From positions 12,028,001-12,092,000 of the forward strand of contig OZ024759.1 of assembly GCA_964016885.1 (NCBI GenBank): a DNA stretch of 64,000 nt. The letters run 5' to 3'. A program made the position numbers and the translations under genes. Shown here piece by piece: positions 12,101 through 44,346 of this stretch; the stretch's first letter is position 1; each line of letters begins with the position of its first letter. The DNA comes from Eledone cirrhosa (Eukaryota). The notes below the pieces were generated by a model, which was given only the letters and a program-made list of their open reading frames with translations, searched no databases and was not told where the DNA came from.

Positions 12101-13158
12101 ACCTAGTCTACTTCTGGGGTGAAGCTGTGGTGTTGAACCTAGTCTACTTCTGGGGTGAAGCTGTGGTGTTGAACCTAGTCTACTGGGGTGAAGCTGTGGT
12201 GTTGAACCTAGTCTACTGGGGTGAAGCTGTGGTGTTGAACCTAGTCTACTTCTGGGGTGAAGCTGTGGTGTTGAACCTAGTCTACTGGGCTGAAGCTGTG
12301 GTGTTGAACCTAGTCTACTTCTGGGGTGAAGCTGTGGTGTTGAACCTAGTCTACTGGGGTGAAGCTGTGGTGTTGAACCTAGTCTACTGGGGTGAAGCTG
12401 TGGTGTTGAACCTAGTCTACTTCTGGGGTGAAGCTGTGGTGTTGAACCTAGTCTACTGGGATGAAGCTGTGGTGTTGAACCTAGTCTACTTCTGGGATGA
12501 AGCTGTGGTGTTGAACCTAGTCTACTGGGATGAAGCTGTGGTGTTGAACCTAGTCTACTGGGATGAAGCTGTGGTGTTGAACCTAGTCTACTGGGGTGAA
12601 GCTGTGGTGTTGAACCTAGTCTACTGGGGTGAAGCTGTGGTGTTGAACCTAGTCTACTGGGGTGAAGCTGTGGTGTTGAACCTAGTCTACTTCTGGGGTG
12701 AAGCTGTGGTGTTGAACCTAGTCTACTGGGGTGAAGCTGTGGTGTTGAACCTAGTCTACTGGGGTGAAGCTGTGGTGTTGAACCTAGTCTACTTTTGGGA
12801 TGAAGCTGTGGTGTTGAACCTAGTCTACTGGGGTGAAGCTGTGGTGTTGAACCTAGTCTACTGGGGTGAAGCTGTGGTGTTGAACCTAATCTACTGGGAT
12901 GAAGCTGTGGTGTTGAACCTAGTCTACTGGGATGAAGCTGTGGTGTTGAACCTAGTCTACTGGGATGAAGCTGTGGTGTTGAATCTAGTCTACTGGGGTG
13001 AAGCTGTGGTGTTGAACCTAGTCTACTGGGATGAAGCTGTGGTGTTGAACCTAGTCTACTGGGATGAAGCTGTGGTGTTGAATCTAGTCTACTGGGGTGA
13101 AGCTGTGGTGTTGAACCTAGTCTACTGGGATGAAGCTGTGGTGTTGAATCTAGTCCAC
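6143..13158 (+). repeat. 33/36-bp minisatellite, about 210 units (7 kb)
   Basis: Unit tggggtgaagctgtggtgttgaacctagtctac with G/A and +TTC/+TAC variants; it produces the 2383-aa ORF. Confidence 0.98.
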
Positions 13159-13729: not shown

Positions 13730-13949
13730 TCAGGGCGAAAGAAGCCCTTCATTAATGTAGCTGGACTGTCGTCCTTACGGAGGTAAGTGACTGTCTATTG
13801 AAAAAAATATATATAAACGAAATGAATGGAGGTAATTCGTTCGGAATGGATTTTCATAGGAAAATTGTTAGTGCGTTGGTCTCAAGACGATGTTTTTAAT
13901 GAATATAATTTCATAATTTAGAGATTTAAAAAAAAAGGATTCAGAGATC

Positions 13950-14175
13950 GAATCCCTCATCGTCACAATACCACCAATGCACTGATAATTTTCTTGTAAA
14001 AATATATCTAATCCGACTCCCGAATCACCTCCATTCGATTCGTTTATATTTTTTTTTAAACAAAGAATGTGAAAAGTACCCATAAGTATAAGTATTCTAT
14101 TCACTAGAATTGCGCCCTTCGAGGTGACCTGCGAGCTGCGTCTCGGACTCCCAGTCTGTGTGACTGACGTTCGAT
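13950..14175 (+). repeat. Dispersed direct repeat, diverged copy at 20530-20735
   Basis: Shared blocks in the same order: cacaaYaccaccaatgc, aagtaSccataagta, tagaattgcgSccttcgMggtgRc and ctgcgtctcggactYccagt. Confidence 0.75.
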
Positions 14176-15028
14176 TCGTGGTGGCGTGCGATTGTTAAGT
14201 GGACCTGGGACTGTCCAGACAGTCCCTTTTGTTGTCAACAGTGAGTCGAAAAAAATGAATACTTAGAATCAAGGGGAGATAATTCCCATTTTTTAAAGCA
14301 AAGTTAACTTCAAGGAGGTCTGGGACTGTCTGGACGACCCCCAATTACATCTAAGGATGTCCCATACGATAACTAGATCGACTTCCGTTTCTTTGAAAGA
14401 GAACCATTTTGGATATTACTTTCATGTGAGGAGGTATGTAATGTTTTCTTTGCTCTATACTAGGACTATCTAAGAAACTATACCTTCTCTCTATACACGT
14501 ACATTCTATTAGATATACACTTTATGTCAATAACACTCACATTTTGGATATTGTGTTCATGTGGCTTTCTGGCACCTAATATATTTCTATTTCCCTTCAT
14601 GATATCCTCGTATTTTGTAATACGATAAGTAGATTGATATAGCTTTAACTTTTAGCCTACAACCATTTATATTCTTTCTAAAACCTACAACCTTGAAGGT
14701 GACTTACATTCTTGGAAGACAGTTTGATTAGAACCTTGGATACTTCTTACTACATTCTTGACTGACTTAGATTCGAACCTTTGATACTTACTTATATATT
14801 CTTAGTTTCTTTCGTTAGAAACTTAGTTTCCCTCCAACAATATTATTTCTAGTTCCCTTCATGATATCCTCGTGTTTTGTTGTAAATTCGTTTTGGAGAC
14901 TTATTCCTGACCTGTTGGTTGCTATATTCTGGTTATTAATATTAACCAGAATCTTTTAAGATCTGTCGTCTTTGGTCAGGGTGAATATTACACCCGTCTC
15001 GTTTTGGCCATAAAACTTAGGTTTTATA

Positions 15029-16833
15029 CCCATTTTTTAAAAATAGATATCATGATCGTGTTAACTAGATCGATATCACTTTAACCGACGTAACATAGAA
15101 CCATTTACATTCTTAGTTTATTTCGTTAGTTACCTCCCTTGATGTAGGAAAAGGTTTTCTTGTTTCCTCTTTTTAAATGTATATATAATAAAAAACAAAC
15201 TTGGAAGAATTTATAAAGTTTAATATTCTTTTTATTGATAACATATGTAAATGTCTTTTATTTCTTTTTGCAGATGTCCAGCCTTCAAGGTCATATGCTG
15301 TGTTGCCGTAACAATACATATATACGAATCGTGCTCAGTTTATTTTGATAAAAATGAATGACAAAGACACTAAGAATGTTTAAACAGCCTCATCAAGGTT
15401 TCGACCGAAAATGGTTGTCCAATAAACAATGTAGACAGTATCACCAATGGTTCCAATCTAAGGAAAGAGAATAGAAAATATCAATAATGTGAAAAGGAAA
15501 GAAAATTAGAGAAAGAACCATCAAGGGTTCGAATGTAGCAGTCGTCTAAAATAGTAAGTAACATAAAGGGTAAAAGTAAGTATCAATAAAAGTCAACAAT
15601 GTAAAAAGTGTTATTAAGGGTTCGAATCCAACAGTCGTCAAAGAATGTAGTAACCATCAAGGGTTCTAAGTATCAAGAACCTTCAAGTATGTAAAGAAAG
15701 TATTGAAGGTTCGAATCCAACTGTCTTCCAAGAACCTTGAAGTATCGAAGGTTCGAATCTAAGTCAGTCAAGAATGTAGTAAGAAGTATCTAACTGTCTT
15801 CTTAGATACTTCTTACTACTTTCTTAGAACCCTTGAAGGTTATTTACATTCTTGGAAGACAGTAGGATTCGAACCTTAGATACTTCTTACTACATTCTTG
15901 ACTTACTTTGATTCGAACCTTTGATACTTTCTTTACATTCTTGATACTTAGAACCCTTGATGGTTACTACATTCTTGGAAGACAGTTAGATTCGAACCTT
16001 CAATACTTTCTTTACATATTTAAAGGTTCTTGATACTTGGAACCCACGATGGTTACTTACATTCTTGGAAGACAGTTAGATTCGAACCTTAGATACTTCT
16101 TACTACATTCTTGACTTACTTAGATTCGAACCTTTGATACTTCGAGGTTCTTGGAAGACAGTTGGATTCGAACCTTCAATACTTTCTTTACATACTTGAA
16201 GTTTCTTGATACTTAGAACCCTTGATGGTTACTACATTCTTTGACGACTGTTGGATTCGAAGCCTTAATGACACTTTTAACATTGTTGACTTTTATTGAT
16301 AGATACTTTTCATTCCCTTTCTGTTACTTACTACTTTTGGACGACTGTTACATTCGAACCCTTGGTGGTTCTTTCTCTAATATTTCTTTCCTTTTCACAT
16401 TATTGATATTTTCTATTCTTTCCTTAGATTGTAACCATTGGTGATACTGTCTACATTGTTTATTGGACAACTATTTTTGGTCGAAACCTTGATGAGGCTG
16501 TTTAAACATTCTTAGTGTCTTTGTCAAAATAAACTGAACACGATTCGTATATATGTATTGTTACGGCAACACAGCATATCACCTTGAAGGCTGGACATCT
16601 GTAAAAAAAAAATAAAAGACATTTACATACGTTATCAATAAAAAGAATATTAAACTTTATAAAATTCTTCCAAGTTTGTTTTTTATTATATATACATTTA
16701 AAAAGAGGAAACAAGAAAACCTTTTCCTACATCAAGGGAGGTAACTAACGAAAGAAACTAAGAATGTAAATGGTTCTGTTAAAGTGATATCGATCCAGTT
16801 AACACGGTCATGATATCTAAAAAAAAAAATGGG
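15029..16833. repeat. 1.8-kb imperfect palindrome (fold-back family member 1)
   Basis: 15029-15793 is the reverse complement of about 16089-16833. The local axis is near 15797, and extra GTTCGAATC sub-repeats lie at 15820-16090. Confidence 0.93.
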
Positions 16834-17499
16834 CCGATTGTCTTGAATCTCCAAAGTATGTGAAGAGGGGACATCCTTTGGGGAAAGTAACTTAATAAAT
16901 TCGATTGATTTATATTAAAATCGAATAAAGCGTTTATATATTGAAAATGTTTTCGTTTCTCAGTATATGAAGCCTTATACTTGAGTCTTTGGGGCATGCA
17001 ATCAAGATTGCCCCGGATTCTCTGGTCTGTCGCGAAAAGCTTATCCCCTAAAGTGACTGAGAGTACAAGACTCCCCCCCCCCCCGAACGTAAGTCCATCA
17101 CAGGGTTAACCCCCCACTTATTGCTGGTGCTCTTGAGTCATACGTAAAACTAAAACAATTGTAAATTCATTTCATTTTTCGATCACTTTCTTCCGCTGTA
17201 TACTAATCATTGGTTAACTGTCTATCGGTGTTTGTAAAGATCGATATCGACTAACTTGTGGGTTTATTTCGCCATCATTAAGTCCCAGATTCGATCACAC
17301 CCCATGTGAAACTGGGTAAACAGAAACTGTGTGTCATCTGTAATTGACAATGGCCAGTCTTATAATACTGAATTTCCCTGGGAATTACGCATGTAATTAT
17401 AGATTAACTAGTGCTGTAGCATGGCCAGGCATCTTAGAAGGTGCTGTAGCATGCCCAAGGATCTTAGAGGGTGCTGCAGCATGGTCAGTATAATTGAAA

Positions 17500-21529: not shown

Positions 21530-21939
21530 GTATATGTATATATACACATATATAATTATTCATAAACTTATGTATATATATACACACACCCACACATATG
21601 TGTACATATTTTTATCTCCATAATAATTGTTCTGTATATATGTACAAAATACTTGTAGATTCTAAATTAATTTAAATATCGAAACGGAATGTGAGATAAC
21701 ACATGAAATATATTTTGAGACGTGTTACCTCCTTTTCCGTTTCTATATTTTTTTTTAAATGAATAAAATTTTACCTATAAGTATACTAATTTTGTTATAC
21801 TTTGGGAGGGTCATGTTGTCAATAAGAAACACACGCACCAGTTGATTTCACTCCAATTTATTATAAATTAAATTTATAAATTTAGGATTTTATAAATTTC
21901 TGGTTGGCTGGTTGGTTGGTTCCACAACCGGACGGTTGT

Positions 21940-22500
21940 TCATATATTGTCAAAGTTCTTTCGCCACAAATTCTGTGACCTTTTCAGTGATTGGGGATTC
22001 TTTTCTTTGTTTTTGTGCCTCTCCTTTGTTCTGTCCTACGCCATCTTGTTTTTGTGTGTGTTGTGTACTTAGTTTGCGCATGTGTTACATCCGGGTGTCT
22101 GTGTGTGTTTTTATTTGTTTATTTAAATGCTACTGGTTGGTTGTTTGTTCTATGTGTGTGTGTGTGTTTTCATTTTGTCCTTAACTGTAAGTTGTGATGT
22201 TGCTATTCCATTCATGTTTTCTATTTAATTTTGGTTGGAGTTCATTTATGTTTATTGCTTCTGTGATTTGACTAAACATTGCGTCTTTTCTGTGTGTAGA
22301 TTCTATTTTTATTTCTATGTTCTCTAATTTGCCCTTATGTTCTATTTTAGCATGTTGGTGGAGTATTGATGATTCTTTTTTATCTTGAAGCTCTCGCCAG
22401 TGTTCATTTAACCGTTCTCCTATACTACGAGCTGTCTCACCTATGTACACTATATTCTTATCTTTACATTGTCCTTCAGTACATCTTATGATATATCTAC
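21940..22500 (-). pseudogene. Penelope-like element 3' remnant: GIY-YIG endonuclease C-terminus plus degenerate hammerhead-like motif
   Basis: The minus strand reads YIIRCTEGQCKDKNIVYIGETARSIGERLNEH...ILHQH...ITEAININELQPKLNRKHE, the CxxxxC..YIGET..R..EH / EA..I....P.LN pattern of PLE GIY-YIG domains. Confidence 0.85.
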
Positions 22501-22519
22501 ATTTCTAGAAATGTAGTAT

Positions 22520-23045
22520 ATAGCATAAGATTACTAAAACTCGAGAACCACCCAACCGAGTTTTATTCAAACTTTACACATGTAGTACTTATGGTCCCGT
22601 GAGTGGTGTTTTGAGCAAAATAAATTTCAAATTTTCAATGCATTAGGCGATTTAGCGATCTCTCTCTATAATTCTTAGTCTTTCTCTTTTTAGATAGATA
22701 CATACATATAACGTCACGCCCTTATAATATCTGTCTGTATGCCTAACTGTCTGCAAATAGTCTTCCTGTTTTCCTTCGATTGCAACGTTTTTCGAAATAT
22801 TTACTTCTGCGTTCACAGATTGATTTTTTTAGTTTCAGAAGATCCTGTTAAGGGTAAAAGCAGCGATTCTTTGCTTAAAAATTAATCTGTTATTTTAATA
22901 TATATAATTATATATTCGTGTACAGATATTTTTGCATATACAATAGCAAAATATAAACAAACATATTTATTTCGCGAGGCTCGATAAGGATAAATATATA
23001 AGAACCCTAGAGCAAATCCCGAACAACGCCGGGCCATTCTGCTAG
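22520..23045 (+). mobile_element. Non-autonomous Helitron-like element, 3' end at 23045
   Basis: Hairpin cccgaacaacgccggg (23018-23033), 8 nt, then CTAG (23042-23045) followed by T, the canonical Helitron 3' terminus. An internal CTGT-rich stretch is present; the 5' end is not defined. Confidence 0.6.
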
Positions 23046-24057
23046 TATCTAATAAAAAACAAACTTGGAAGAATTCTATAAAGTTTAATATTCTTTTTAT
23101 TGATAACGTATGTAAATGACTTTTATTACTTTTAGATATCCAGCCTTCAAGCCGTAAAGAATGGCGAACTCTCTGTTAAGAAAGCTTACATATATACGAA
23201 TCGTGTTCAGTTTATTTTGACAAAAATGAATAAAGTTTACATATTATATACGAATTGTGTTCAGTTTATTTTGACAAAGACACTAAGAATGTTTAAACAG
23301 CCTCATCAAGGTTTCAAATCCAACAGTCGCTCCAAAAATAGACAGTATCACCAATGGTTACAATCTAAGGAAAGAGAATAGAAAATATCAATAATGTGAA
23401 AAGGAAAGAAATATCAGAGAAAGAACCATCAAGGGTTCGAATGTAACAGTCGTCCAAAAGTAGTAAGTAACAGAAAGAGAATGAAAAGTATCAATAAAAA
23501 TCAATAATGTAAAAAGTATCATTAAGGGTTCGAATCCAATAGTCGTCCAAGAATGTAACCATCTAAGTATCAAGAACCTTCAAGTATGTAAAGAAAGTAT
23601 TGAAGGTTCGAATCCAACTGTCTTCCAAGAACCTTGAAGTATCAAAGGTTCGAATCTAAGTGAGTCAAGAATGTAGTAAGAAGTAGCTAAGGTTCTAATC
23701 TAACTGTCTTCCAAGAATGTAAGTAACTTTCAAGGGTTCTAAGAAGACAGTTGGAATAGAACCTTAGTTACTTCTTACTACATTCGAACTTAACTCGATT
23801 TTTGCTCTAAAATTTTAATGTATTTATCTCCCTTTTTTTAAACTCTTCTTTTTTTTTAAGTGACTTCCGGTTCTTTGGAAGAGAACCATTTTGGATATTA
23901 CTTTCATGTAAAGAGGTATGTAATGTTTTCTTTGCTACTAGGACTAATAGATACACTTTATGTCAATAACGGATATAGTTTTCTATACACATACATTCTC
24001 TTAGATACACACTTTTCAGAAAACACGTTTCATATAGAATCTTTCTCGACATTTTAT

Positions 24058-24087
24058 AGTGTTTACCTCTGATCAGAGGTAAACACT
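24058..24087. repeat. Perfect 30-bp palindrome agtgtttacctctga|tcagaggtaaacact
   Basis: Seen directly in the left-arm spacer. Confidence 0.9.
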
Positions 24088-24231
24088 GTATTTAAGGTCG
24101 AGTGATTAGCGGCCTTTAGACTCACCTGATCAATGAAACTTTTGATAATACTAGAAATAAAACCTTTTTGTGCAGCCGACCATGTTATTCTTCAATCTTA
24201 CACACACATACACACACACATATATATATAT

Positions 24232-24368
24232 AAGGGTAAAGACCCTCACGATTGACCATGGGATTTTCATCTAAAAAGTTCCCCTCCGAGACCGGGCAAG
24301 GTTGTTTGTGGAAGACCAGCAGTCTTCCCTCCCCACGCCACTGATGTTGTCCAACTCATTTCTACAGA
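24232..24368 (-). mobile_element. SINE body fragment inserted in the left arm only
   Basis: gaccatgggatt...ccgggcaaggttgtttgtggaagaccagcagtc...ctcatttctacag; the last motif is shared with the SINE at 4921-5268. No mirror copy on the right. Confidence 0.45.
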
Positions 24369-25016
24369 CTGATCTAGAGAAACGTGAGACAACGCTAGTA
24401 AATCTTTATTTTATATTGAAGAGTTTCACTTAAACATTTTCCGTTTATTTCCCTCCATAATGTCAGCAATAATTAACCAATAGTTTTGTTTAGCTGCTGC
24501 CCCACCTCCACGTTGTGTTGTATTTCCAATGTAATGTCACCTCACACATTTCTCGGTCATATCAAATAGAATTTAGCGTATTTCTATATTATTTAAGTTG
24601 GCAAATAAGATAACATCTCTGTCTGACGACCGATCCAGACGTTTACTATTGTCTATGATCCAGAAACCTTTGGTAATGGAGTAGTTTGTGTTGTTCGCTT
24701 TCTAATATATATATAAACTCGTCGCTATTTATATACACACACAGACATATATTTATATATATGTATATATAGTTATGTAATAAACAACATAAAGCAATTA
24801 TTCCATTTACCAGTGGTTTCTTAAAAGCAAAAAATGTTGCTTTCAATCACCAGAATGAAAAAATCCTGGTGTCTTTATTGATATTGGATTCTAAAAACAA
24901 AAATGCAATCTATAACTGTTAAGCTCTGTTACCTACATAGAGCACTCTTTTTACCTGGACTTGTCCGACGGAATTACTTCATTTATATGTATATATATAC
25001 ACACACAGAGACAGAC

Positions 25017-25047
<31 letters not shown>

Positions 25048-26111
25048 GAGACAGACATATATATATATATATATACACACACACAGACATATATATAAAC
25101 ACACATATATATATATACACATATATATATATATACACACACACACGCACACTTATGTATATATATATATACAGTTGGTAAATAATATACTTGTTCTTCT
25201 CTTCATCATATCCTCGTGTTGGAGGACTTTCTCTTTGTCAACATGTCCCAGTCAGTCGTTGGAGTGTCATACTAGATGTGCAGTCGTGCTTTACAATCAT
25301 GAGTTCGATTCTCGTAGCAAGCTTCTGAAGGACTTGTGCTTGATTCTGATAGTTACTTTACCATGGCAGAATCTCCTTTGGCCCTGCTAGATTCTGGTTA
25401 TTAATATTAACCAGAATCTTTTGAGAACTGTTGTCTTTGGTCAGAGTGAATATTTCACCCGTCTACGTAACACACACACACTTAATATGCATTTTTAGTT
25501 TAATATTATTTTTATTGATAATGTATGTAAATGACTTTCATTTCTTTTTACAGATGTCCAGCCATCAAGGCCATATGCTGTGTTGTTTGCCGTAACAAGT
25601 GGGAATGTCGTACTTTCTTTTAATAAATATACGAGAAAACTAATCGCTATGCACACACACACACACACACACATCTTTTAATAAAGAAAGTTTACATCAT
25701 ATATACGAATTGTACTCAGTTTATTTTGAGAAAAATGAATAAAGAAAGTTTACATATTATATACGAATTGTGTTCACTTAATGTTGACAAAAATGAATAA
25801 AGAAATCAAGAGTCTAGAAGAAACCGAGTTCGCCGTGATGTAAAGAACGTAAGTGTTTATGAAGTTTCTAAATAAAGAAACTAAGAGTAAGATAAAGTTT
25901 CTTGTAAGAAACTGAGAATGAAGAAGTTTCTAAATAAAGAAACTAAGAGGTAGATAAAGTTTCTTGAAAGAAACTGAGATTTATGAAGTTTCTAAATAAA
26001 GAAACTAAGAATGTTTTTGAAATTATCGAAAAAAAAATCTATGAAATAAGACCACCCTCTTTTTAATTTTTTTTTATTAAAGGGAGGTAACTCTGTAATA
26101 TTTTGAAACGA

Positions 26112-26505
26112 ATTACCTCCCTTTGAAACACCTTCGTCACCGTCGTTACCACCGTCGGCACCTTCGTAACCGTCGTCACCATTACCGCCGCCACCTGGTG
26201 GCGGAGGAAAAGATACCGACGACGACGGGGGTGCACCGTCGTCTTCGTCGGTACTTTTACCTCCGCCACCAGGTGGCGGAGGTAAAGACACCGACGAAGA
26301 CGAAGGTGCACCGTCGTCTTCGTCGGTGTCTTTACCGCCGCCACCTGGTGGCGGAGGTAAAAGTACCGACGAAGACGACGGTGCACCCCCGTCGTCGTCG
26401 GTATCTTTTCCTCCGCCACCAGGTGGCGGCGGTAATGGTGACGACGGTTACGAAGGTGCCGACGGTGGTAACGACGGTGACGAAGGTGTTTCAAAGGGAG
26501 GTAAT
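26112..26505. repeat. GC-rich palindrome core: 75-bp period made of alternating inverted 37.5-bp half-units
   Basis: Axes at 26196, 26271, 26346 and 26421 (ccgccaccWggtggcgg) and at 26233.5, 26308.5 and 26383.5 (GTGCAC-centred). Confidence 0.95.
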
Positions 26506-27528
26506 TCGTTTCAAAATATTACAGAGTTACCTCCCTTTAATAAAAAAAAATTAAAAAGAGGGGGTCTTATTTCATAGATTTTTTTTTCGATAATTTCAAA
26601 AACATTCTTAGTTTCTTTATTTAGAAACTTCATAAATCTCAGTTTCTTTCAAGAAACTTTATCTACCTCTTAGTTTCTTTATTTAGAAACTTCTTCATTC
26701 TCAGTTTCTTACAAGAAACTTTATCTTACTCTTAGTTTCTTTATTTAGAAACTTCATATACACTTACGTTCTTTACATCACGGCGAACTCAGTTTCTTGT
26801 AGACTCTTGATTTCTTTATTCATTTTTGTCAACATAAAGTGAACACAATTCGTATATAATATGTAAACTTTCTTTATTCATTTTTCTCAAAATAAACTGA
26901 ATATAATTCGTATATATGATGTAAACTTTCTTTATTAAAAGATGCGTGTGTGTGTGTGTGTGTGTGTATAGCGATTAGTTTTCTCGTATATTTATTAAAA
27001 GAAAGTACGACATTCCCACTTGTTACGGCAAACAACACAGCATATGGCCTTGATGGCTGGACATCTGTAAAAAGAAATGAGAGTCATTTACATACATTAT
27101 CAATAAAAATAATATTAAACTAAAAATGCATATTAAGTGTGTGTGTGTTACGTAGACGGGTGAAATATTCACTCTGACCAAAGACGACAGTTCTCAAAAG
27201 ATTCTGGTTAATATTAATAACCAGAATCTAGCAGGGCCAAAGGAGATTCTGCCATGGTAAAGTAACTATCAGAATCAAGCACAAGTCCTCCAGAAGCTTG
27301 CTACGAGAATCGAACTCATGATTGTAAAGCATGACTGCACATCTAGTATGACACTCCAACGACTGACTGGGACATGTTGACAAAGAGAAAGTCCTCCAAC
27401 ACGAGGATATGATGAAGAGAAGAAGAAGTATATTATTTACCAACTGTATATATATATATATATATATATATGTATGAGTGTGTGTGAATATATATATGTC
27501 TGTGTGTGTGTGTGTACATGTGTGTGTG

Positions 27529-27575
<47 letters not shown>

Positions 27576-27824
27576 ATGTATATATATATATATATATATA
27601 TAGCGATGAGTTTTCTCGTATATAATATATCTATAAATGTCTGTGTGTGTATATATATAGCGATGAGTTTTCTCGTATATAATATATCTATAAATGTCTG
27701 TGTGTATATATATAGCGATGAGTTTTCTCGTATATATGTCTGTGTGTGTGTATATATATTATATACATATATGTCGGGGGGGGGGGGGGGTATAGCGATG
27801 AGTTTTCTCGTATGTATATATATA

Positions 27825-27894
27825 ACCCATGCTAGTCCGTCTAACCCATGCTAGCATGGAAGAACAGACGTAAAACGATGATGATGATGATGAT
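27825..27894 (+). mobile_element. Short RTE-type 3' end with (GAT)n tail, right arm only
   Basis: ccgtctaacccatgctagcatggaagaacagacgtaaaa(cgatgat)n matches the reverse complement of 44347-44403 and the 3' end at 54935-54980. Confidence 0.75.
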
Positions 27895-29900
27895 ATATAT
27901 ATATATATTAGAAAGTGAACAACACAAAATATAACTTCTCCATTACCAAAGGTTTCTGGATCATAGACAATAATAGTAAACGTCTGGATCGGTCGTCAGA
28001 CAGAGATGTTATCTTATTTGCCAACTTAAATAATATAGAAATACGCTAAATTCTATTTGATATGACCGAGAAATATGTGAGGTGACATTACATTGGAAAT
28101 ACAACACGTGGAGGTGGGGCAGCAGCTAAACACAACGTGGAGGTGGGGCAGCAGCTAAACAAAACTATTGGTTAATTATTGCTGACATTATGAGTACTTG
28201 ATACTTGGGATAGTAAAGTGTGACTCTGCCAGTATATTCATATATACTTATCTATATTGAAACACACACATATATATATATATATACATGCATGCACACT
28301 TCCATATATGAATGTGTAAACATATATAGTGATTGCTTAATCTTTGCAAATGATTGCCGTTTCCCTATGCAACCCCAAGTATTGATGTACCCAGATTTAG
28401 AGAGCAGTAGACGACCACACACTTCAAAACTCCAGCTCCCTATGTTCTTATTGATAATAAGAGAAATAGAGAAGATAATAAAAATGTAGCTGTATATAGA
28501 GAAGGTATGTGTCTAGTGAAGAATGTGTGTCTCTAAAGAGGAAAGGTGTAAATCGAATCATGTCAATAAAGAAGATATATGTAAAAAGAGGTTTAGTTTC
28601 TACGAATAAAATGTACATATTGATATGGTGTGTAGAGTTATATTGTATACAAAGAAAACATTACATACCTCTTTAAATGAACGTAATATCCAAGATGATC
28701 TTTTTCAAAGAACCGGAAGTCAATCGAAAATAAAGCAACAGAAGAGTTCCATAAAGGGGAAATAACTAATAAAAAACGATTGCTCGAGCTATCTAGGAGG
28801 CAGGCCAGCATATAACCATCCTGCACATAATCCTGGCTGCCGAGGCCGCGTGCCCTCGCAACGATTCGATCTTCCGACACATAGAATATGTCACGCCGAG
28901 AGTTCGAATCCAACAGTCTTCCAAGAATGTAAGTAATCATCGTGGGTTCTAAGTATCAAGAATGTAAAGAAAGTATTTAAGGTTCGAATCTAAGTAAGTC
29001 AAGATAGAATGTAGTAAGAAGTATCTAAGTTTCTTTTCCAACTGTCTTCTTAGAACCCTTGAAAGTTACTTACATTCTTGGAAGACAGTTAGATTCTAAC
29101 CCTTGATACTTCTTACTACATTCTTGACTTACTTAGATACTTTCTTTACATTCTTGGAAGACAGTTAGATTAGAACCTTAGCTACTTCTTACTACATTCT
29201 TGACTTACTTAGATACTTTCTTTACATTCTTGGAAGACAGTTAGATTAGAACCTTAGCTACTTCTTACTACATTCTTGACTTACTTAGATTCGAACCTTT
29301 GATACTTCAAGGTTCTTGGAAGACAGTTGGATTCGAACCTTCAATACTTTCTTTACATACTTGAAGGTTCTTGATACTTAGATGGTTACATTTTCGGACG
29401 ACTGTTGGATTCAAACCCTTAATGACACTTTTTACATTATTGATTTTTATTGATAGATACTTTTCATTCCCTTTCTGTTACTTACTACTTTTGGACGACT
29501 GTTACATTCGAACCCTTGATGGTTCTTTCTCTAATATTTCTTTCCTTTTCACATTATTGATATTTTCTATTCTCTTTCCTTAGATTGTAACCATTGGTGA
29601 TACTGTCTATTTTTGGAGCGACTGTTGGATTTGAAACCTTGATGAGGCTGTTTAAACATTCTTAGTGTCTTTGTCAAAATAAACTGAACACAATTCGTAT
29701 ATAATATGTAAACTTTATTCATTTTTGTCAAAATAAACTGAACAGGATTCGTATATATGTAAGCTTTCTTAACAGAGAGTTCGCCATTTTTTACGGCTTG
29801 AAGCCGTATCTAAAGATAAATAAAAGTCATTTACATACGTTATCAATAAAAAGAATATTAAACTTTATAAAATTCTTCCAAGTTTGTTTTTTATTAGATA

Positions 29901-30317
29901 CTAGCAGAATGGCCCGGCGTTGCTCGGGATTTTCTCTAGGGTTCTTATATATTTATCCTTATCGAGCCTCGCGAAATAAATATGTTTGTTTATATTTTGC
30001 TATTGTATATGCAAAAATATCTGTACACGAATATATAATTATATATATTAAAATAACAGATTAATGTTTAAGCAAAGAATCGCTGCTTTCACCCTTAACG
30101 GGATCTTCTGAAACTAAAAAAAATCAATCTGTGAACGCAGATGTAAATATTTCGAAAAACGTTAAAACCGAAGGAAAACGGGAAGACTATATGCAGACAG
30201 TCAGGCATTCAGACAGATATTATAAAGGCGCAACGTTATATCTATGTATCTATCTAAAAAGAGAAAGACTAAGAAATATAAAGAGAGATCGCTAAATCGC
30301 CTAATGCATTGAAAATT
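29901..30317 (-). mobile_element. Mirror copy of the Helitron-like element, 3' CTAG at 29901-29904
   Basis: a-ctag-cagaatgg-cccggcgttgctcggg; reverse complement of 22630-23045; truncated where the CR1-like RT fragment begins. Confidence 0.6.
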
Positions 30318-30323
30318 GTAATA

Positions 30324-31040
30324 AAATTGCCAAAGTCATAGAGTCCTGTGTCAGAAAAACACTCTGGAACTCTCACAGCCTTATCCAGCCCTCGCAATTT
30401 GGATTTCTCCCCAACTCCAGCTGCTGTGATCAACTCATCGAGTTTCTTGAAGACATTACCCAAATCACTGATGGCGGCTCATGGGTGGATGTTTATCTTG
30501 ACTTTGCTAAAGCTTTTAACTCTGTGCCACACAAAATACTCATGGCAAAACTCTCTGCAATGGGTGTGAGAGATGATCTTTTTAACTGGTTGAAGTCCTT
30601 CATTCTCAGTCGAAAAGAGGTAGTTCGGGCCGAGGACAGCATTCCTCACTATATGAGATGACATCTGGTGTAGCAAAGGGATCTGTTCATGGTCCCCTTT
30701 TGTTTGTGGCATATATTAATGACATAGATGCCAACATAAAGAATGCCACAGTACTGAAATATGCAGACGACGTCAAGCTGTACCTTGAGATAAAAAAGAC
30801 AGATACTGAACACTATAGATCTTGCTTGCAGCAATCAGACCTGGACACAATGCAGCAATGGACCATGGACTGGCAACTCAAGCTAGCTGTGAACAAGTGT
30901 ACTACCATGCATTCTGGGAGGAAAAACCCAGCTTTCACACACTCCCTCCACAACACCAATCTCAAGAAGTCTTCTTGTAAACATGACCTGGACATTACTG
31001 TCAGCAGCAATTTGTGTTGGACAAAGCACATCTCTACACC
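30324..31040 (+). pseudogene. CR1/L2-like LINE reverse transcriptase fragment (disrupted)
   Basis: QFGF...CCDQLIEF, YLDFAKAFNSVPH, TSGVAKGSVHGPLLFVAYINDI, KYADDVKLY and WQLKLAVNKC motifs across frameshifts. Confidence 0.9.
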
Positions 31041-31904
31041 TGATATTCCCCCTGCATACACACACGTGTGTGTGTGTCTATGTGTATATAAAGACTCATA
31101 CACTGCTCCCTTTCCTGACAATTGTACATTATTCTATGTACCATACCTGCACCTTTGATACCGAGGAAGTTGACCATTCTATTATTATTTTCTATTTCAA
31201 CATTAAGACTGTAATTATTTTAAAAAAACAGTTATTATTTTCTTTCCTATTTAGAATTATTATTATGGTTAACTAACATGAAAAGAGCATCATTGTGGTA
31301 CAAACCACCGCCAAGTTCAGGTAACCTTCTGTTAATTAGGTTAAGGATAAAAATTCTACCTAGCCGAGTCTGTGGATCTCATGGTGATGTCAAAATTCCC
31401 AGGTCGGTCGGCTCTGTTGAAATCAATTATCATCTTCCTAGCCGTAAAGATGTTAACTTCACTCGAAAGATCAATATATTTTGTCTATATTAGGGCTCTA
31501 TTGAGTAGTGTTGGTGAAATTGGAGAGTAGTAGTTACTTATGTCCATTTGTATAAATTTAATTCTGTTTTTATTTGGAAGTTCAATAAACCAATCAATAA
31601 CGTCATTGGTTCCATTCCATAATTTAAGTTGGGATCATAGCTTCAACGTTGGTATGATTCTGTCTAGAATGTTCTTATAATTCCTAAATCTTAGATGGTG
31701 CTATAAGTCTACCCAGTAGCTCAGATTCAAAGTTATTTTTATGGTCTTCCATATTTATTCTCAGTGTTTTAGTTATGAAAGGTTCAGTACGGTGTTCTAT
31801 CCCAAGTTTGGTGACAATTTTATTTGCTTCTTTATTTATAAATTCAATGTTTTATGGCAGTTTTTATTCCTAAGTTCTCTGATTATTAGTTTATTATTGG
31901 ACTT

Positions 31905-34150
31905 ACGTATCAGATATGAGCGGCACCAAGTCTCAAGTTGACTACATTATGGTCAACAAAAACTGGAAAAACTCTGTACACAACTGCGAAGCATACAACT
32001 TCAGCAGCATGGGATCGGATCACCGTATCACAACAGCAGAGCTTAAATTAAGCTTGAGAACCAGTAAAGCGTTATCTACCAGAGTCAACTATGATTGAGC
32101 TTCACTAAGGGATCCTGATTTGAGCGATCTTTATACTGTTACCTTTAGAAACAAGTATGCAAGCTTGTGCACAGAAAACGAATCCATCACAGACATACAC
32201 TCACCTCATTCAAGCAAATGACGGAGCAGCCACAGAGCTTCTTCCATGAAAAAAGAAGCACAAAAAGAAACAAACTTCGGGTGATCCGCGAGTCATCGAT
32301 GCAAGAGAGAAAATTCAGAAGGCTTCTAGGGCATACACAGAGAATCCAACAGAGCGTAATTGCCAGAAACGTCAACGATGCAAGAATACACTGCAGAAGG
32401 CATATGACACTATTTCCGAGGAAGAACTTGATAAATGGATAGCTGAAGTAGAATCTGCAGATGTGAAATCGAAGCATGGAGAAAGCTGGAAGCTAATAAA
32501 CGAGATCACTGGGAGGAAATCTGTCAAACAAGCCATAACAAAAGCAAACTCTAAGGAAGATCACATCAAGAAGTGGTACTTACACTTCAAGGAATTACTT
32601 GGAAAAGAGCCTAAAGTTGTGGGTGAGATCAGCGAAATTGCACCAGTGCTGAAAAATCTGGGAATCTCAGACACAATCTTCACACCTGCTGAATACTCAA
32701 TAGCCAAGAAGTCTCTGAAGGAGGGGAAAGCCTTTAGATCTGATGGCATCGGCCCGGAAGTTCTCAAGCATTGCAACCTGGATGACATCATGCTCGGTTA
32801 TGTCAAAAAGCTGATGGTCGGCGAGAAGCCTGACCAATGGTCAGAAAGCAATATGAAGCCTCTACCAAAGTCAGGTGATCTCGGCTATACAGACAACTAC
32901 AGGGGAATAGCTTTGTCCTCCATTGCAGCCAAATTGGCAAATCGAATGCTTCTCAACAAGAATCCACCAAAAATCAATCCACAACTACGTCTGAACCAGA
33001 ATGGCTTCCAACCAGGAAGGTCGACTGTTGCTTATATTCTTGCATTGAGGAGATTAATCGAGGGTTTCCAATCACACAACCTAAAAGCTGTCTTGACATT
33101 TGTAGACTTTCAAAAGGCATTCGACAGCATCCACCGAGGGCGAATGCTCCAGATACTGAGAGTATATGATGTGCCTGAAAAGATAGTTCAAGCTATAGGT
33201 CTGATGTACGAGGGTACTCGAGCTCACATATTGACACAAGACAGAAACACTGATTACTTTGAGATTCTCACAGGTGTTCACCAAGGTGACACGATTGCAC
33301 CTTTCCTATTTGCAATTGTCCTCAATTATGCAATGAAACAGGCCATTCATGGGAAGGAAGAAGAGATTGGTTTCAAATTGGATTGAAGGAGAAGTTGTCA
33401 CTGAAACAGACTTTGCCGATGACAATGCCTTGATCAAAGAGGAAATCAGCCAAGCTCAAAGAATTCCTCACACGTGTCGAGGTTGAATCAGGCAAAATAG
33501 GACTGCATCTCAATGCAAAGAAGACCGAAATCATGCACTACAATCAGGTTGATCCAGCTCCAGTTCTTGCTAAGGACGGTACAACAGTCAAAACAGTTGA
33601 GAACTTTAAGTATCTTGGTGCATGGATGCGCAGCTCACGCAAGGAATTTGAAGTTAGAAAAGCACGAGCATGGGCGGCATGTCACAAGCTACTGAAGGTG
33701 TGGAAGTCCAACCTATACCGCAAAATCAAGGAGCGTCTCTTCCTAGCAACTGTTGAATCCGTCCTGCTTTACGGCAGTGAAACGTGGACTATTGACAAAG
33801 TGCTATGCAAGAGACTTGACGGATGTTGAGTATGGCTCCCAACATTTCTTGGAAACAGAAGCTGACAAATACAGAACTCTACAGATCACTACCACCAGTC
33901 TCAAATAAAGTTGTCTGCGGACGAATGAAACTGTCTGGACACTGCATACGTCATCCAGAAGAGACAACATCACAACTTGTACTCTAGAAACCGGCGGTCA
34001 GACAAAGAAGCGTGGGAAGACAGGCCGTCTCATTCATTGATACCCTGTTGAGAGATTGATACCCATTGATAACATCGAGAAACTGAGAAATGTCATGCTC
34101 GACTGGGACGATTGGAGAAAGCGTGCTGAATCTGCGAGTGTAAACTCGGC
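31905..34150 (+). pseudogene. 5'-truncated RTE-like LINE (APE C-terminus plus RT), disrupted
   Basis: QVDYIMVN...SDH (APE), NYRGIAL, QNGF, FVDFQKAFDSIHR, GVHQGDTIAPFLF, FADD (near 33412), FKYLG and ESVLLYGSETW. Confidence 0.92.
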
Positions 34151-34436: not shown

Positions 34437-37400
34437 TTCACATCAAAGTGATAAGCCTGCCACAGTGTAGTATTAGGGTTCACATCAAAGTGATAAGCCC
34501 GCCACAGTGTAGTGTTAGGGTTCACATCAAAGTGATAAGCCCGTCACAGTGTAGTGTTAGGGTTGACAGCAAAGTGATAAGCCCGCCACAGTGTAGTGTT
34601 AGGGTTCACATCAAAGTGATAAGCCCGCCACAGTGTAGTGTTAGGGTTCACATCAAAGTGATAAGCCCGTCACAGTCTAGTGTTAGGGTTCACATCAAAG
34701 TGATAAGCCCACCACAGTGTAGTGTTAGGGTTCACATCAAAGTGATAAGCCCACCACAGTGTAGTGTTAGGGTTCACATCAATGTGATAAGCCCACCATA
34801 GTGTAGTGTTAGGGTTCACATCAAAGTGATAAGCCCACCACAGTGTAGTGTTAGGGTTCACATGACAGTGATAAGCCCACCACAGTGTAGTGTTAGGGTT
34901 CACATCAAAGTGATAAGCCCGCCACAGTGTAGTGTTAGGGTTCACATCAAAGTGATAAGCCCACCACAGTGTAGTGTTAGGGTTCACATGACAGTGATAA
35001 GCCCACCACAGTGTAGTGTTAGGGTTCACATCAAAGTGATAAGCCCACCACAGTGTAGTGTTAGGGTTCACATGACAGTGATAAGCCCACCACAGTGTAG
35101 TGTTAGGATTCACATCAAAGTGATAAGCCCACCACAGTGTAGTGTTAGGGTTCACATCAAAGTGATAAGCCCGCCACAGTGTAGTGTTAGGGTTCACATG
35201 ACAGTGATAAGCCCACCACAGTGTAGTGTTAGGGTTCACATGACAGTGATAAGCCCACCACAGTGTAGTGTTAGGGTTCACATCAAAGTGATAAGCCCAC
35301 CACAGTGTAGTGTTAGGGTTCACATGACAGTGATAAGCCCACCACAGTGTAGTGTTAGGGTTCACATCAAAGTGATAAGCCCACCACAGTGTAGTGTTAG
35401 GGTTCACATCAAAGTGATAAGCCCACCACAGTGTAGTGTTAGGATTCACATCAAAGTGATAAGCCCACCACAGTGTAGTGTTAGGGTTCACATGACAGTG
35501 ATAAGCCCACCACAGTGTAGTGTTAGGGTTCACATGACAGTGATAAGCCCACCACAGTGTAGTGTTAGGGTTCACATGACAGTGATAAGCCCACCACAGT
35601 GTAGTGTTAGGGTTCACATGACAGTGATAAGCCCACCACAGTGTAGTGTTAGGGTTCACATCAAAGTGATAAGCCCACCACAGTGTAGTGTTAGGGTTCA
35701 CATGACAGTGATAAGCCCACCACAGTGTAGTGTTAGGGTTCACATGACAGTGATAAGCCCACCACAGTGTAGTGTTAGGGTTCACATGACAGTGATAAGC
35801 CCACCACAGTGTAGTGTTAGGGTTCACATCAAAGTGATAAGCCCACCACAGTGTAGTGTTAGGGTTCACATGACAGTGATAAGCCCACCACAGTGTAGTG
35901 TTAGGGTTCACATCAAAGTGATAAGCCCACCACAGTGTAGTGTTAGGGTTCACATGACAGTGATAAGCCCACCACAGTGTAGTGTTAGGGTTCACATGAC
36001 AGTGATAAGCCCACCACAGTGTAGTGTTAGGGTTCACATCAAAGTGATAAGCCCACCACAGTGTAGTGTTAGGGTTCACATGACAGTGATAAGCCCACCA
36101 CAGTGTAGTGTTAGGGTTCACATGACAGTGATAAGCCCACCACAGTGTAGTGTTAGGGTTCACATGACAGTGATAAGCCCACCACAGTGTAGTGTTAGGG
36201 TTCACATGACAGTGATAAGCCCACCACAGTGTAGTGTTAGGGTTCACATCAAAGTGATAAGCCCACCACAGTGTAGTGTTAGGGTTCACATGACAGTGAT
36301 AAGCCCACCACAGTGTAGAGGGTTCACATGACAGTGATAAGCCCACCACAGTGTAGTGTTAGGGTTCACATGACAGTGATAAGCCCACCAGAGTGTAGTG
36401 TTAGGGTTCACATGACAGTGATAAGCCCACCACAGTGTAGTGTTAGGGTTCACATGACAGTGATAAGCCCACCACAGTGTAGTGTTAGGGTTCACATCAA
36501 AGTGATAAGCCCACCACAGTGTAGTGTTAGGGTTCACATGACAGTGATAAGCCCACCACAGTGTAGTGTTAGGGTTCACATCAAAGTGATATGCCCACCA
36601 CAGTGTAGTGTTAGGGTTCACATGACAGTGATAAGCCCACCACAGTGTAGTGTTAGGGTTCACATCAAAGTGATAAGCCCACCACAGTGTAGTGTTAGGG
36701 TTCACATGACAGTGATAAGCCCACCACAGTGTAGTGTTAGGGTTCACATCAAAGTGATAAGCCCACCACAGTGTAGTGTTAGGGTTCACATGACAGTGAT
36801 AAGCCCGCCACAGTGTAGTGTTAGGGTTCACATCAAAGTGATAAGCCCACCACAGTGTAGTGTTAGGGTTCACATGACAGTGATAAGCCCACCACAGTGT
36901 AGTGTTAGGGTTCACATGACAGTGATAAGCCCGCCACAGTGTAGTGTTAGGGTTCACATGACAGTGATAAGCCCACCACAGTGTAGTGTTAGGGTTCACA
37001 TCAAAGTGATAAGCCCACCACAGTGTAGTGTTAGGGTTCACATCAAAGTGATAAGCCCGCCACAGTGTAGTGTTAGGGTTCACATCAAAGTGATAAGCCC
37101 GCCACAGTGTAGTGTTAGGGTTCACATCAAAGTGATAAGCCCACCACAGTGTAGTGTTAGGGTTCACATCAAAGTGATAAGCCCACCACAGTGTAGTGTT
37201 AGGATTCACATCAAAGTGATAAGCCCACCACAGTGTAGTGTTAGGGTTCACATGACAGTGATAAGCCCACCACAGTGTAGTGTTAGGGTTCACATGACAG
37301 TGATAAGCCCACCACAGTGTAGTGTTAGGATTCACATGACAGTGATAAGCCCACCACAGTGTAGTGTTAGGGTTCACATCAAAGTGATAAGCCCGCCACA

Positions 37401-40400
37401 GTGTAGTGTTAGGATTCACATCAAAGTGATAAGCCCACCACAGTGTAGTGTTAGGGTTCACATCAAAGTGATAAGCCCGCCACAGTGTAGTGTTAGGGTT
37501 CACATCAAAGTGATAAGCCCACCACAGTGTAGTGTTAGGATTCACATCAAAGTGATAAGCCCACCACAGTGTAGTGTTAGGGTTCACATCAAAGTGATAA
37601 GCCCACCACAGTGTAGTGTTAGGGTTCACATCAAAGTGATAAGCCCACCACAGTGTAGTGTTAGGATTCACATCAAAGTGATAAGCCCGCCACAGTGTAG
37701 TGTTAGGGTTCACATCAAAGTGATAAGCCCACCACAGTGTAGTGTTAGGGTTCACATGACAGTGATAAGCCCACCACAGTGTAGTGTTAGGATTCACATC
37801 AAAGTGATAAGCCCACCACAGTGTAGTGTTAGGGTTCACATCAAAGTGATAAGCCCACCACAGTGTAGTGTTAGGGTTCACATGACAGTGATAAGCCCGC
37901 CACAGTGTAGTGTTAGGATTCACATCAAAGTGATAAGCCCGCCACAGTGTAGTGTTAGGGTTCACATCAAAGTGATAAGCCCGCCACAGTGTAGTGTTAG
38001 GGTTCACATGACAGTGATAAGCCCGCCAGTGTAGTGTTAGGGTTCACATCAAAGTGATAAGCCCGCCACAGTGTAATGTTAGGGTTCACATGACAGTGAT
38101 AAGCCCGCCAGTGTAGTGTTAGGGTTCACATCAAAGTGATAAGCCCGCCACAGTGTAGTGTTAGGGTTCACATCAAAGTGATAAGCCCACCACAGTGTAG
38201 TGTTAGGGTTCACATCAAAGTGATAAGCCCACCACAGTGTAGTGTTAGGGTTCACATCAAAGTGATAAGCCCACCACAGTGTAGTGTTAGGGTTCACATC
38301 AAAGTGATAAGCCCGCCACAGTGTAGTGTTAGGGTTCACATCAAAGTGATAAGCCCACCACAGTGTAGTGTTAGGGTTCACATCAAAGTGATAAGCCCAC
38401 CACAGTGTAGTGTTAGGATTCACATCAAAGTGATAAGCCCGCCACAGTGTAGTGTTAGGGTTCACATGACAGTGATAAGCCCGCCACAGTGTAGTGTTAG
38501 GATTCACATCAAAGTGATAAGCCCGCCACAGTGTAGTGTTAGGGTTCACATCAAAGTGATAAGCCCGCCACAGTGTAGTGTTAGGGTTCACATGACAGTG
38601 ATAAGCCCGCCAGTGTAGTGTTAGGGTTCACACCAAAGTGATAAGCCCGCCACAGTGTAGTGTTAGGGTTCACATCAAAGTGATAAGCCCGCCACAGTGT
38701 AGTGTTAGGGTTCACATCAAAGTGATAAGCCCACCACAGTGTAGTGTTAGGGTTCACATCAAAGTGATAAGCCCGCCACAGTGTAGTGTTAGGGTTCACA
38801 TGACAGTGATAAGCCCGCCAGTGTAGTGTTAGGGTTCACATCAAAGTGATAAGCCCGCCACAGTGTAGTGTTAGGGTTCACATCAAAGTGATAAGCCCAC
38901 CACAGTGTAGTGTTAGGGTTCACATCAAAGTGATAAGCCCACCACAGTGTAGTGTTAGGGTTCACATCAAAGTGATAAGCCCACCACAGTGTAGTGTTAG
39001 GGTTCACATCAAAGTGATAAGCCCGCCACAGTGTAGTGTTAGGGTTCACATCAAAGTGATAAGCCCGCCACAGTGTAGTGTTAGGGTTCACATCAAAGTG
39101 ATAAGCCCACCACAGTGTAGTGTTAGGGTTCACATCAAAGTGATAAGCCCGCCACAGTGTAGTGTTAGGGTTCACATCAAAGTGATAAGCCCACCACAGT
39201 GTAGTGTTAGGGTTCACATCAAAGTGATAAGCCCGCCACAGTGTAGTGTTAGGGTTCACATCAAAGTGATAAGCCCGCCACAGTGTAGTGTTAGGGTTCA
39301 CATGACAGTGATAAGCCCGCCACAGTGTAGTGTTAGGGTTCACATCAAAGTGATAAGCCCGCCACAGTGTAGTGTTAGGGTTCACATCAAAGTGATAAGC
39401 CCACCACAGTGTAGTGTTAGGGTTCACATGACAGTGATAAGCCCGCCACAGTGTAGTGTTAGGGTTCACATCAAAGTGATAAGCCCACCACAGTGTTGTG
39501 TTAGGGTTCACATGACAGTGATAAGCCCGCCACAGTGTAGTGTTAGGGTTCACATGACAGTGATAAGCCTGCCACAGTGTAGTGTTAGGGTTCACATGAC
39601 AGTGATAAGCCTGCCACAGTGTAGTGTTAGGGTTCACATGACAGTGATGAGCCTGCCACAGTGTAGTGTTAGGGTTCACATGACAGTGATAAGCCTGCCA
39701 CAGTGTAGTGTTAGGGTTCACATCAAAGTGATAAGCCCGCCACAGTGTAGTGTTAGGGTTCACATGACAGTGATAAGCCCGCCACAGTGTAGTGTTAGGG
39801 TTCACATCAAAGTGATAAGCCCACCACAGTGTAGTGTTAGGGTTCACATGACAGTGATAAGCCCACCACAGTGTAGTGTTAGGGTTCACATCAAAGTGAT
39901 AAGCCCACCATAGTGTAGTGTTAGGGTTCACATCAAAGTGATAAGCCCGCCACAGTGTAGTGTTAGGGTTCACATCAAAGTGATAAGCCCGCCACAGTGT
40001 AGTGTTAGGGTTCACATCAAAGTGATAAGCCCACCATAGTGTAGTGTTAGGGTTCACATCAAAGTGATAAGCCCACCACAGTGTAGTGTTAGGGTTCACA
40101 TGACAGTGATAAGCCCACCACAGTGTAGTGTTAGGGTTCACATCAAAGTGATAAGCCCACCATAGTGTAGTGTTAGGGTTCACATCAAAGTGATAAGCCC
40201 ACCACAGTGTAGTGTTAGGGTTCACATGACAGTGATAAGCCCACCACAGTGTAGTGTTAGGGTTCACATCAAAGTGATAAGCCCACCATAGTGTAGTGTT
40301 AGGGTTCACATCAAAGTGATAAGCCCGCCACAGTGTAGTGTTAGGGTTGACATCAAAGTGATAAGCCCACCACAGTGTAGTGTTAGGGTTCACATGACAG

Positions 40401-43400: not shown

Positions 43401-43501
43401 GTAGTGTTAGGGTTCACATCAAAGTGATAAGCCCGCCACAGTGTAGTGTTAGGGTTCACATGACAGTGATAAGCCTGCCACAGTGTAGTGTTAGGGTTCA
43501 C
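34437..43501. repeat. 42-bp satellite, about 215 units, one TTAGGG per unit
   Basis: Unit gggttcacatcaaagtgataagcccaccacagtgtagtgtta, with atcaaa/atgaca and acc/gcc variants. Confidence 0.98.
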
Positions 43502-44242: not shown

Positions 44243-44346
44243 GAGTTTTGTTATAATAATAATAAATAAAAAAGACAGTTACTTTAGTCCACCCCTATTA
44301 ATATACAGGGTGGGGCATAAAAACTGTTACAAAATAAAATGCAAAT

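Follow-up and report, generated by a model that had tools for sequence, protein, structure and literature searches.

The window analyzed here, a stretch of 64,000 nucleotides from Eledone cirrhosa (GenBank assembly GCA_964016885.1, contig OZ024759.1, positions 12,028,001 to 12,092,000 of the forward strand), contains between positions 22630 and 30317 a palindrome whose two arms, built of exon-like, intron-like and repeat modules, face each other across a GC-rich core (Table 1). On the best reading of the data, this palindrome is not a one-off but one member of a core-duplicon-like family of palindromic, probably noncoding units, dispersed mainly along a single contig (C20) of the assembly.

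Self-BLAST and a global arm-to-arm alignment resolve the palindrome into four nested inverted pairs about a single axis at 26308/26309, as an earlier note made from the sequence alone had described. That note was also right that nothing separates the arms at the axis: the spacer is 0 nt, the arms 26055-26308 and 26309-26562 match at 99%, and the folding energy of the central 498 nt is -341 kcal/mol, compared with -80 +/- 5 in 100 shuffles. Counting substitutions only, 14 of 1137 positions differ between the inner arms (25170-26308 versus 26309-27447; 98.8% identity), 3 of 260 in layer F, 7 of 74 in layer D (90.5% identity) and 34 of 1064 in the outer layer (96.8% identity). The impression that the outer pairs are the more diverged needs correction: divergence does not rise monotonically with distance from the axis, the third layer, D, being the most diverged and the outermost not. 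The mirror open reading frames (ORFs) of 71 amino acids (aa; TTG start, at 25175 on the plus strand and 27443 on the minus strand) differ at three residues, in agreement with the earlier count, and the plus-strand copy has no Pfam match. The arm-specific spacers and insertions reported previously do exist, but most of them are alternative deletions from a longer arm that is intact at a locus near 24.85 Mb of C20; there, both arms carry modules E and Rsp2, of which the left arm in the window retains only E and the right arm only Rsp2.

The search with the core, for which all 19 candidates were scored, identified 17 distinct loci in the 3.0-Gb genome, 16 of them on C20 (9.2-35.2 Mb) and one on contig C19. 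In an exhaustive pattern count, a 17-mer of the core has 57 sites genome-wide, all of which fall inside these loci (57/57; control 0). Every one of the 17 is palindromic about the core, with 1 to 3 core units and an arm symmetry of 0.6 to about 4.3 kb, so that a one-off inverted duplication, which the earlier note would have accepted had the modules never been palindromic elsewhere, is out. The window copy and the C20 loci at 9.587 and 9.165 Mb have common blocks of at least 15 kb at about 96-98%, the colinear blocks common to the loci stop at differing distances from the axis (some extend to the 10-kb limit of the fetched sequence), and the C19 copy was relocated inside a larger block. The palindrome itself is real: the variants specific to each of its arms are found again in the orthologous arms of its duplicates, which rules out a read chimera and upholds the earlier view of an aged structure. 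The family thus repeats a common core at dispersed positions along one chromosome, and the duplicated flanks around it vary in extent; comparison of ORF frames and searches of Pfam and of protein sequences revealed no expanding protein family encoded by it. At C20 35.218-35.258 Mb, two core palindromes with near-identical inner arms lie 10.3 kb apart, and the two palindromes in turn form a larger inverted pair.

Each arm is an inward-facing copy of a more widely repeated unit that consists of a TATA-like box, an exon, a GT-AG intron and a second exon. Alignments of the unit contain, in order, an inverted-repeat upstream element, the TATA-like box, an initiator-like box, a CpG-rich exon 1, a GT donor and a pyrimidine-rich AG acceptor. 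Among the 34 arms of the 17 loci, the inner acceptor region is present in 33 (with the AG in 32), the upstream donor in 30, and the TATA box together with the initiator-like box, scored by a strict pattern, in six. Both TATA boxes are gone from the window copy, which is likely a decayed member; in the right arm, a repeat array replaces the 5' end of exon 1 and the TATA box. Six AATAAA hexamers are located on the inward strand in the 58-bp and 62-bp tandem repeats, which also contain a GTAAGT donor-like site near 25850, and a seventh is found at 25622. In the alignments, the reading frames of exon 1 are not kept between subfamilies, a result that speaks against a coding exon 1 and makes it likely that the unit is noncoding. 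The idea that the units are 5' exons of zinc-finger genes was also dropped, on a weak test: no C2H2 ORF is among those listed for the 17 loci, and one of the best 150 of the 64,480 C2H2 zinc-finger candidates genome-wide is on C20.

The donor and acceptor sites were written down before the contigs of run X4 were compared with the right arm of the C20 locus at 24.85 Mb. At this arm (24.856 Mb), one X4 contig skips 2506 nt with GT..AG ends exactly at the predicted donor and acceptor. The contig is 304 nt long, has a depth of 6 and shows 7 differences over 276 nt; its exon is 100% identical to this arm, compared with at most 89-92% for the other loci scored (best 40 of 290 candidates). The joined 16-mer has one match in the genome, in unrelated sequence outside any family context, and a retrocopy was rejected as the source of the joint, since the genome search for the joined form found none. 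Fourteen other X4 joints map to the same arm, none with the predicted GT..AG ends, and resemble length variants between paralogues. Splicing of the arm unit has been observed in this way once, and weakly, at a sister locus. No contig in these comparisons joins sequence across the axis, a kind of join that contigs cannot show. X4 does not cover the core, which was not used as evidence because contigs cannot show absence and because duplex regions are prone to drop-out in RNA sequencing (PMC10317233). In the restriction site-associated DNA sequencing runs X5 and X6, the arms have hardly any coverage. Among the public runs listed for the left arm there is no RNA run, and no small-RNA run.

Table 1. 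Features of the palindrome and its surroundings (window positions)
Feature	Positions	Strand	Remarks
Outermost inverted pair	22630-23722 with 30317-29222		
Third inverted pair (layer D)	23813-23934 with 28775-28650		
Second inverted pair (layer F)	24456-24715 with 28192-27898		
Innermost inverted pair	24980-26308 with 27639-26309		
GC-rich palindromic core	26125..26492	.	three 75-bp units, mirrored 60-70-bp flanks on either side
Small hairpin L beside core	26079..26124	+	mirror about 26493-26538; stem 15-mer also within an abundant tRNA-type short interspersed nuclear element (SINE)
58-bp and 62-bp tandem repeats	25680..26010	+	mirror 26606-26936
Exon 2 start, left arm	25554..25680	+	follows branch-like/pyrimidine/AG acceptor; homologous acceptor used in X4 joint
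Left-arm intron homologue	23916..25553	+	1638 bp, GT...AG; modules E, F, G, microsatellite, H
Exon 1 homologue 3' end, left arm (module D)	23813..23915	+	stops at donor; remaining exon 1 and TATA box missing here
Exon 2 start, right arm	26937..27064	-	acceptor at 27065-27066
Right-arm intron homologue	27065..28668	-	1604 bp, GT...AG
Exon 1 homologue, right arm	28669..28897	-	92% to positions 47-276 of spliced exon at C20:24.86 Mb
Degenerate repeat array C	23281..23800	+	five GTTCRAAT B-box-like words; mirror and expansion 28899-29670
Second, paralogous acceptor and exon-2-like module B	23046..23280	+	mirror about 29670-29900
High-copy dispersed element	22534..23045	+	3148 candidates; 3' end a short hairpin, CTAG, then T
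Mirror copy of dispersed element	29901..30317	-	same site, same private short deletion; cut off by LINE fragment
Orphaned family promoter piece	21674..21790	+	inverted-repeat upstream element and TATA-like box, pointing at palindrome
GIY-YIG endonuclease fragment	22184-22504	-	adjoins palindrome; likely 3' part of Penelope-like element
Long interspersed nuclear element (LINE) reverse transcriptase fragment	30305-31155		adjoins right end of palindrome, truncates outer element
Second family member in window	14080..16692	+	TATA-like box, exon 1, donor, acceptor, then B/C fold-back 15182-16692

The repeated unit extends well beyond the 17 core loci. Arm modules lacking the core also occur on contigs C13, C15, C12, C21 and other mid-sized or small contigs, and an 18-mer of the acceptor has 84 exact sites, 41 on C20, 18 on C15, 14 on C13 and 11 on others, with none on C1-C6 (control 0). 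There are about 270-290 candidates for the promoter module genome-wide, the best 40 of 272-290 having been scored in each search, and many C13 loci carry it at both ends, inward-facing and 4-6 kb apart. In non-palindromic members on C13 and C15, arrays of about 40-bp repeats, 2-3 kb long, lie between such inward promoter modules. Among the top C15 copies, promoter modules match at 97-100%, and the module falls into subfamilies that are specific to chromosomes. Blocks related to the second member in the window (W14-C-W17, window 13740-17400) are present on C9, C13, C18 and C25. Fold-back is not restricted to the core loci, being seen in this second member and in a palindrome on C12, and in several subfamilies exon 2 leads into a self-complementary or convergent arrangement. 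The C12 palindrome, near 47.09 Mb, has the same modules without the GC-rich core; its outer 4.3 kb are 99% alike and its exon-2-like center is flanked by long arrays of the 62-bp type.

The core is an array in which two self-complementary words alternate in three 75-bp units, creating several local axes in addition to the global one. Over 26121-26496, its GC content is 60% and its ratio of observed to expected CpG is 1.47, versus 0.40 in the window. Its flank is the best-conserved part of the family, with 11 of 77 columns variable versus 242 of 562 in the neighboring arm modules (p = 4e-7) and a mean divergence between loci of 2.0% versus 5-8% for the exon-2, repeat and L modules. Such conservation of so CpG-rich a sequence suggests either selection or conversion between loci. 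A coding function was rejected for the Gly/Pro/Asp frames on both strands of the core, as there is no ATG-started ORF of at least 45 aa over the core and no Pfam match, and none of 158 candidates scored in a search of proteins of similar length. A known structured RNA was likewise rejected: all Rfam matches are below the gathering score, and neither tRNA genes nor, at threshold, microRNAs were found. The stem word of hairpin L is shared with an octopus-like tRNA-type SINE, which, like the very large C2H2 zinc-finger complement, suggests a cephalopod genome. This hairpin, in the central TTAA-flanked part, was considered as an end of a Kolobok/T2-type miniature inverted-repeat transposable element and discarded; among 3731 word matches, 9 of 12 sampled were inside the SINE and none of the 12 had TTAA together with a partner end.

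How the symmetry has been kept can be approached by comparing the window copy with its 9.587-Mb duplicate. The core shows no differences in 150 positions within each locus, against 6 in 150 from one locus to the other. For the outermost module, the counts are 19 of 401 between arms of the same locus, 3 of 401 between the window left arm and its orthologue, and 15 of 402 for the other orthologous pair. Near the axis, then, each arm resembles its partner at the same locus more than it does the arms of the duplicate, and far out the relationship is reversed. In a tree of the 34 inner arms, 8 of the 17 loci have sister arms (support 85-100), the left arms of the 12.79-Mb and C19 loci group together, as do their right arms, and the C20:32.72-Mb arms come from two clades; the others are unresolved. 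A mismatch lies within 11 bp of each of the 16 measurable axes (the locus at C20:10.50 Mb, where a 1-bp indel shifts the register, was excluded), and in 7 of these 16 loci every mismatch inside 150 bp of the axis is within 29 bp, a pattern that would follow from retention of an imperfect priming stem and fresh copying of its extension. By these patterns, the arms are likely re-copied from the center. According to this model, the 3' end of a broken or stalled strand would fold back at one of the two hairpin centers of the core, copy outward over a variable distance and rejoin, and copying of variable length would yield nested layers of differing age. The loci would spread along the chromosome inside segmental duplications, with arms exchanged by recombination in the core, and mismatches at the center could additionally dampen cruciform extrusion. 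The template-switch models described in PMC10766186 resemble this fold-back mechanism. The hairpin-primed replication junction proposed in the earlier note is thus retained to the extent that fold-back copying at the center is the likely origin; a virus-like replicon does not fit, as discussed below.

Taken together, these observations lead us to an interpretation that we judge about as probable as its negation: the 17-locus family would consist of facing noncoding, apparently spliced units arranged across a hairpin core, where the core primes fold-back and read-through produces a hairpin RNA. Given an intact promoter, transcription from exon 2 through the core would give a duplex of about 750 bp. 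Perfect 21-mers of the inner arm are common to 31 of 40 other family stretches and to none of 36 control loci, which are shorter, and a duplex matching many non-palindromic members could dampen them through a small RNA or A-to-I editing route. A hairpin RNA from the inner arms is predicted from sequence, as are read-through of the axis and small RNA. A bolder version, which we consider doubtful, holds that the palindromes are self-renewing, chromosome-specific genes, each continually rebuilt from its hairpin core through fold-back synthesis, whose convergent spliced transcripts form long double-stranded RNA (dsRNA) policing several hundred related noncoding units on other chromosomes.

Several points weigh against the main interpretation. 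The conservation of the core could stem from conversion between loci, and the number of AT-rich variable columns may be inflated by misalignment. The window arms have donor and acceptor and no TATA box. For most modules, the partner arm of the same locus is strictly closest in a minority of loci (exon 2, 3 of 16; for L the count is 10 of 17), because recent duplicates tie with it or beat it. Splicing was seen in one contig, whose short side is 28 nt against a bridge bar of the tool of 31 nt and which was flagged "between: not known", and run X4, whose type is off record, comes from the same study as the likely source data. The 21-mer comparison is partly circular, as the 40 stretches were chosen by their likeness to family modules. 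Seven AATAAA hexamers lie between acceptor and core, and transcripts may stop short of the core as a result. Finally, a table in PMC4793324 gives one Dicer gene for cephalopods, so that a small interfering RNA (siRNA) route of the fly type is not assured.

The same hexamers favor an alternative without any RNA role, namely an old repeat of identical anatomy and fold-back maintenance, with a leaky promoter and transcripts that end at the AATAAA repeats, in which the palindromes would persist solely through their renewal by the core. This is possible, though less likely than not: many arms lack the promoter or exon 1, there is no conserved ORF, and the arms are full of deletions, microsatellites and insertions of transposable elements. 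Against it stand the CpG-rich core, better preserved than any other part of the family, and the self-complementary or convergent arrangements that exon 2 enters in several subfamilies.

The earlier note had raised the possibility of a non-autonomous fold-back mobile element and gave 22630 and 30317 as limits. Those limits do not delimit an element: the left one falls inside the dispersed element, which reaches 22534 and to which the outermost 416 bp of the palindrome belong, and the right one is set by the LINE fragment. The dispersed element is presumably Helitron-like, judging from the features of its 3' end. Both outer arms share its insertion site and its private short deletion, which points to one insertion that was then copied to the other arm. 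No transposase or reverse transcriptase ORF was found inside the palindrome, in line with the earlier note, but the GIY-YIG and LINE fragments are immediately beside it. Among 110 scanned ORFs (105 representatives of the 168 complex ORFs of 130 aa or longer from the fetched loci, which are part of the family, and five from the window), matches were mainly to LINE reverse transcriptase or endonuclease; the others were one GIY-YIG, a single mariner fragment that lies outside the arms at one locus, and an eIF3e gene beyond the window. None was a transposase common to the family, and the autonomous partner that the earlier note envisaged was not found between the same arms. By eye, no target-site duplication was seen upstream of modules P or Q or at the ends of the window copy, and no common end point upstream of those modules. 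With its ends inside other repeats, its flanks ending variably and no common transposase, the palindrome does not appear to be a bounded transposon. A Penelope-type cause was rejected as well, since the GIY-YIG fragment is at that position in three segmental duplicates only, with unrelated copies near 2 other loci of the 17.

A non-autonomous DNA transposon of the Foldback or Mutator-like kind, with promoter-bearing inverted repeats, local hopping and a transposase encoded elsewhere, would account for the long modular inverted arms, the inward promoter modules at both ends of many C13 loci and the clustering of copies by chromosome. We consider it unlikely, given the lack of common ends just described, the scattered end points of the common blocks (some at the fetch limit), the termination of the window copy inside other repeats, and a single member of the DDE family among the 110 ORFs, the mariner fragment. 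Improbable too is a DNA-level chromosome mark, in which the core would be a putative protein-binding or cruciform site for pairing, origin or boundary functions and transcription would be incidental. The location of 16 of the 17 loci from 9 to 35 Mb of one 37-Mb contig, the strong conservation of the core and the B-box-like words in the outer arrays would be compatible with such a mark; the spacing, however, is irregular and explained by duplication, and one copy moved to C19 within a larger block. A leftover head-to-head junction from a virus or linear replicon with hairpin ends, similar to a parvovirus terminal repeat with decayed arms, is very improbable: a branched GC-rich hairpin next to AT-rich tandem repeats does resemble termini of this type, but no Rep, helicase or capsid family was found among the 110 ORFs, the core has no match in viral contigs and its reading frame none in proteins, and the arms bear promoter and splice signals of host type. 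Spacerless palindromes are generally known as a class of assembly or read fold-back artefact, an explanation with practically no weight here in view of the arm-specific variants shared between orthologous arms at two separate loci, the mismatch close to every measurable axis and the short-read contigs of X1 that cover the core.

Other features of the surroundings are repeats and one gene. A broken LINE reverse transcriptase fragment at 32250-33829 and the one adjoining the palindrome represent two families, and an inverted pair related to the GIY-YIG fragment lies near 7000-8450 of fetched stretch L091. A 33-bp minisatellite of about 209 copies, 95% alike, occupies 6144-13155, and both of its strands have frames that stay open over about 2390 codons. 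Within 34437-53178, a 42-bp minisatellite (216 copies) is followed by three larger tandem units of about 3.5-3.9 kb, each containing more of it. Just past the right end of the window, eIF3 subunit E domains are encoded in long single frames (L094:888-1829 and L094:7305-7859).

The implications differ with the part of the interpretation considered. Long spacerless palindromes are unstable and rare in natural genomes, according to PMC10766186, yet 17 copies with one conserved center persist here; they record repeated rewriting of one arm from the other and constitute a natural series for studying how palindromes arise, are repaired and spread. The arm modules point to many more spliced noncoding units, a large family that is unannotated and has subfamilies specific to chromosomes. 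Should hairpin RNA come from the palindromic members, these would offer a direct test of long endogenous dsRNA as a substrate for silencing or editing, and policing by dsRNA, if true, would represent intragenomic silencing outside flies and plants, in a group with one Dicer and heavy RNA editing.

In the literature searched, where coverage of subscription journals was limited and supplements were excluded, no description of this palindrome family was found. In the primate core duplicons (LCR16a/NPIP and the palindromic GOLGA), as presented in PMC7419210 and PMC6436712, a transcribed core recurs at dispersed positions along a single chromosome, its duplicated flanks vary in extent and palindromic arrangements mark points of rearrangement; the present family resembles them in this layout. 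They are, however, protein-coding families of 14-20 kb, whereas the unit here is 3-4 kb without a conserved ORF, and each locus is a spacerless palindrome built on a hairpin array of 240-390 bp. Drosophila hairpin RNA (hpRNA) loci, according to PMC10317233, give spliced noncoding transcripts with long inverted repeats matching paralogues and some multi-copy clusters; complementarity to paralogous loci is likewise seen here, in the 31 of 40 stretches selected by likeness. Those loci are defined by Dcr-2-dependent 21-nt siRNAs; in the present family, both arms have a whole promoter-exon-intron unit, and the putative targets are noncoding too.

Palindromes of the Y chromosome type share the homogenization of the arms of a locus against each other but are tens to hundreds of kb long and have spacers, unlike the dispersed, spacerless palindromes of a few kb described here. 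Foldback and Mutator-like transposons have long modular inverted repeats and inward promoters, as found here, but also fixed ends, a target-site duplication and a partner transposase, none of which was found. Origin-dependent inverted-repeat amplification (ODIRA) and amplification primed by short inverted repeats, according to PMC10766186, generate palindromic junctions by fold-back or template switch at a short inverted repeat, with later deletions in the arms; the palindromes there are described as unstable and rare, with interrupted centers, in contrast to the 17 spacerless centers of the same sequence in this genome. The structure and spread of the family are well supported, and its transcription has been shown once, weakly, by one contig. 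By analogy, the family may be viewed as a mix of known kinds, with the spread of core duplicons, the arm homogenization of Y palindromes and possibly an output resembling that of hpRNA loci.

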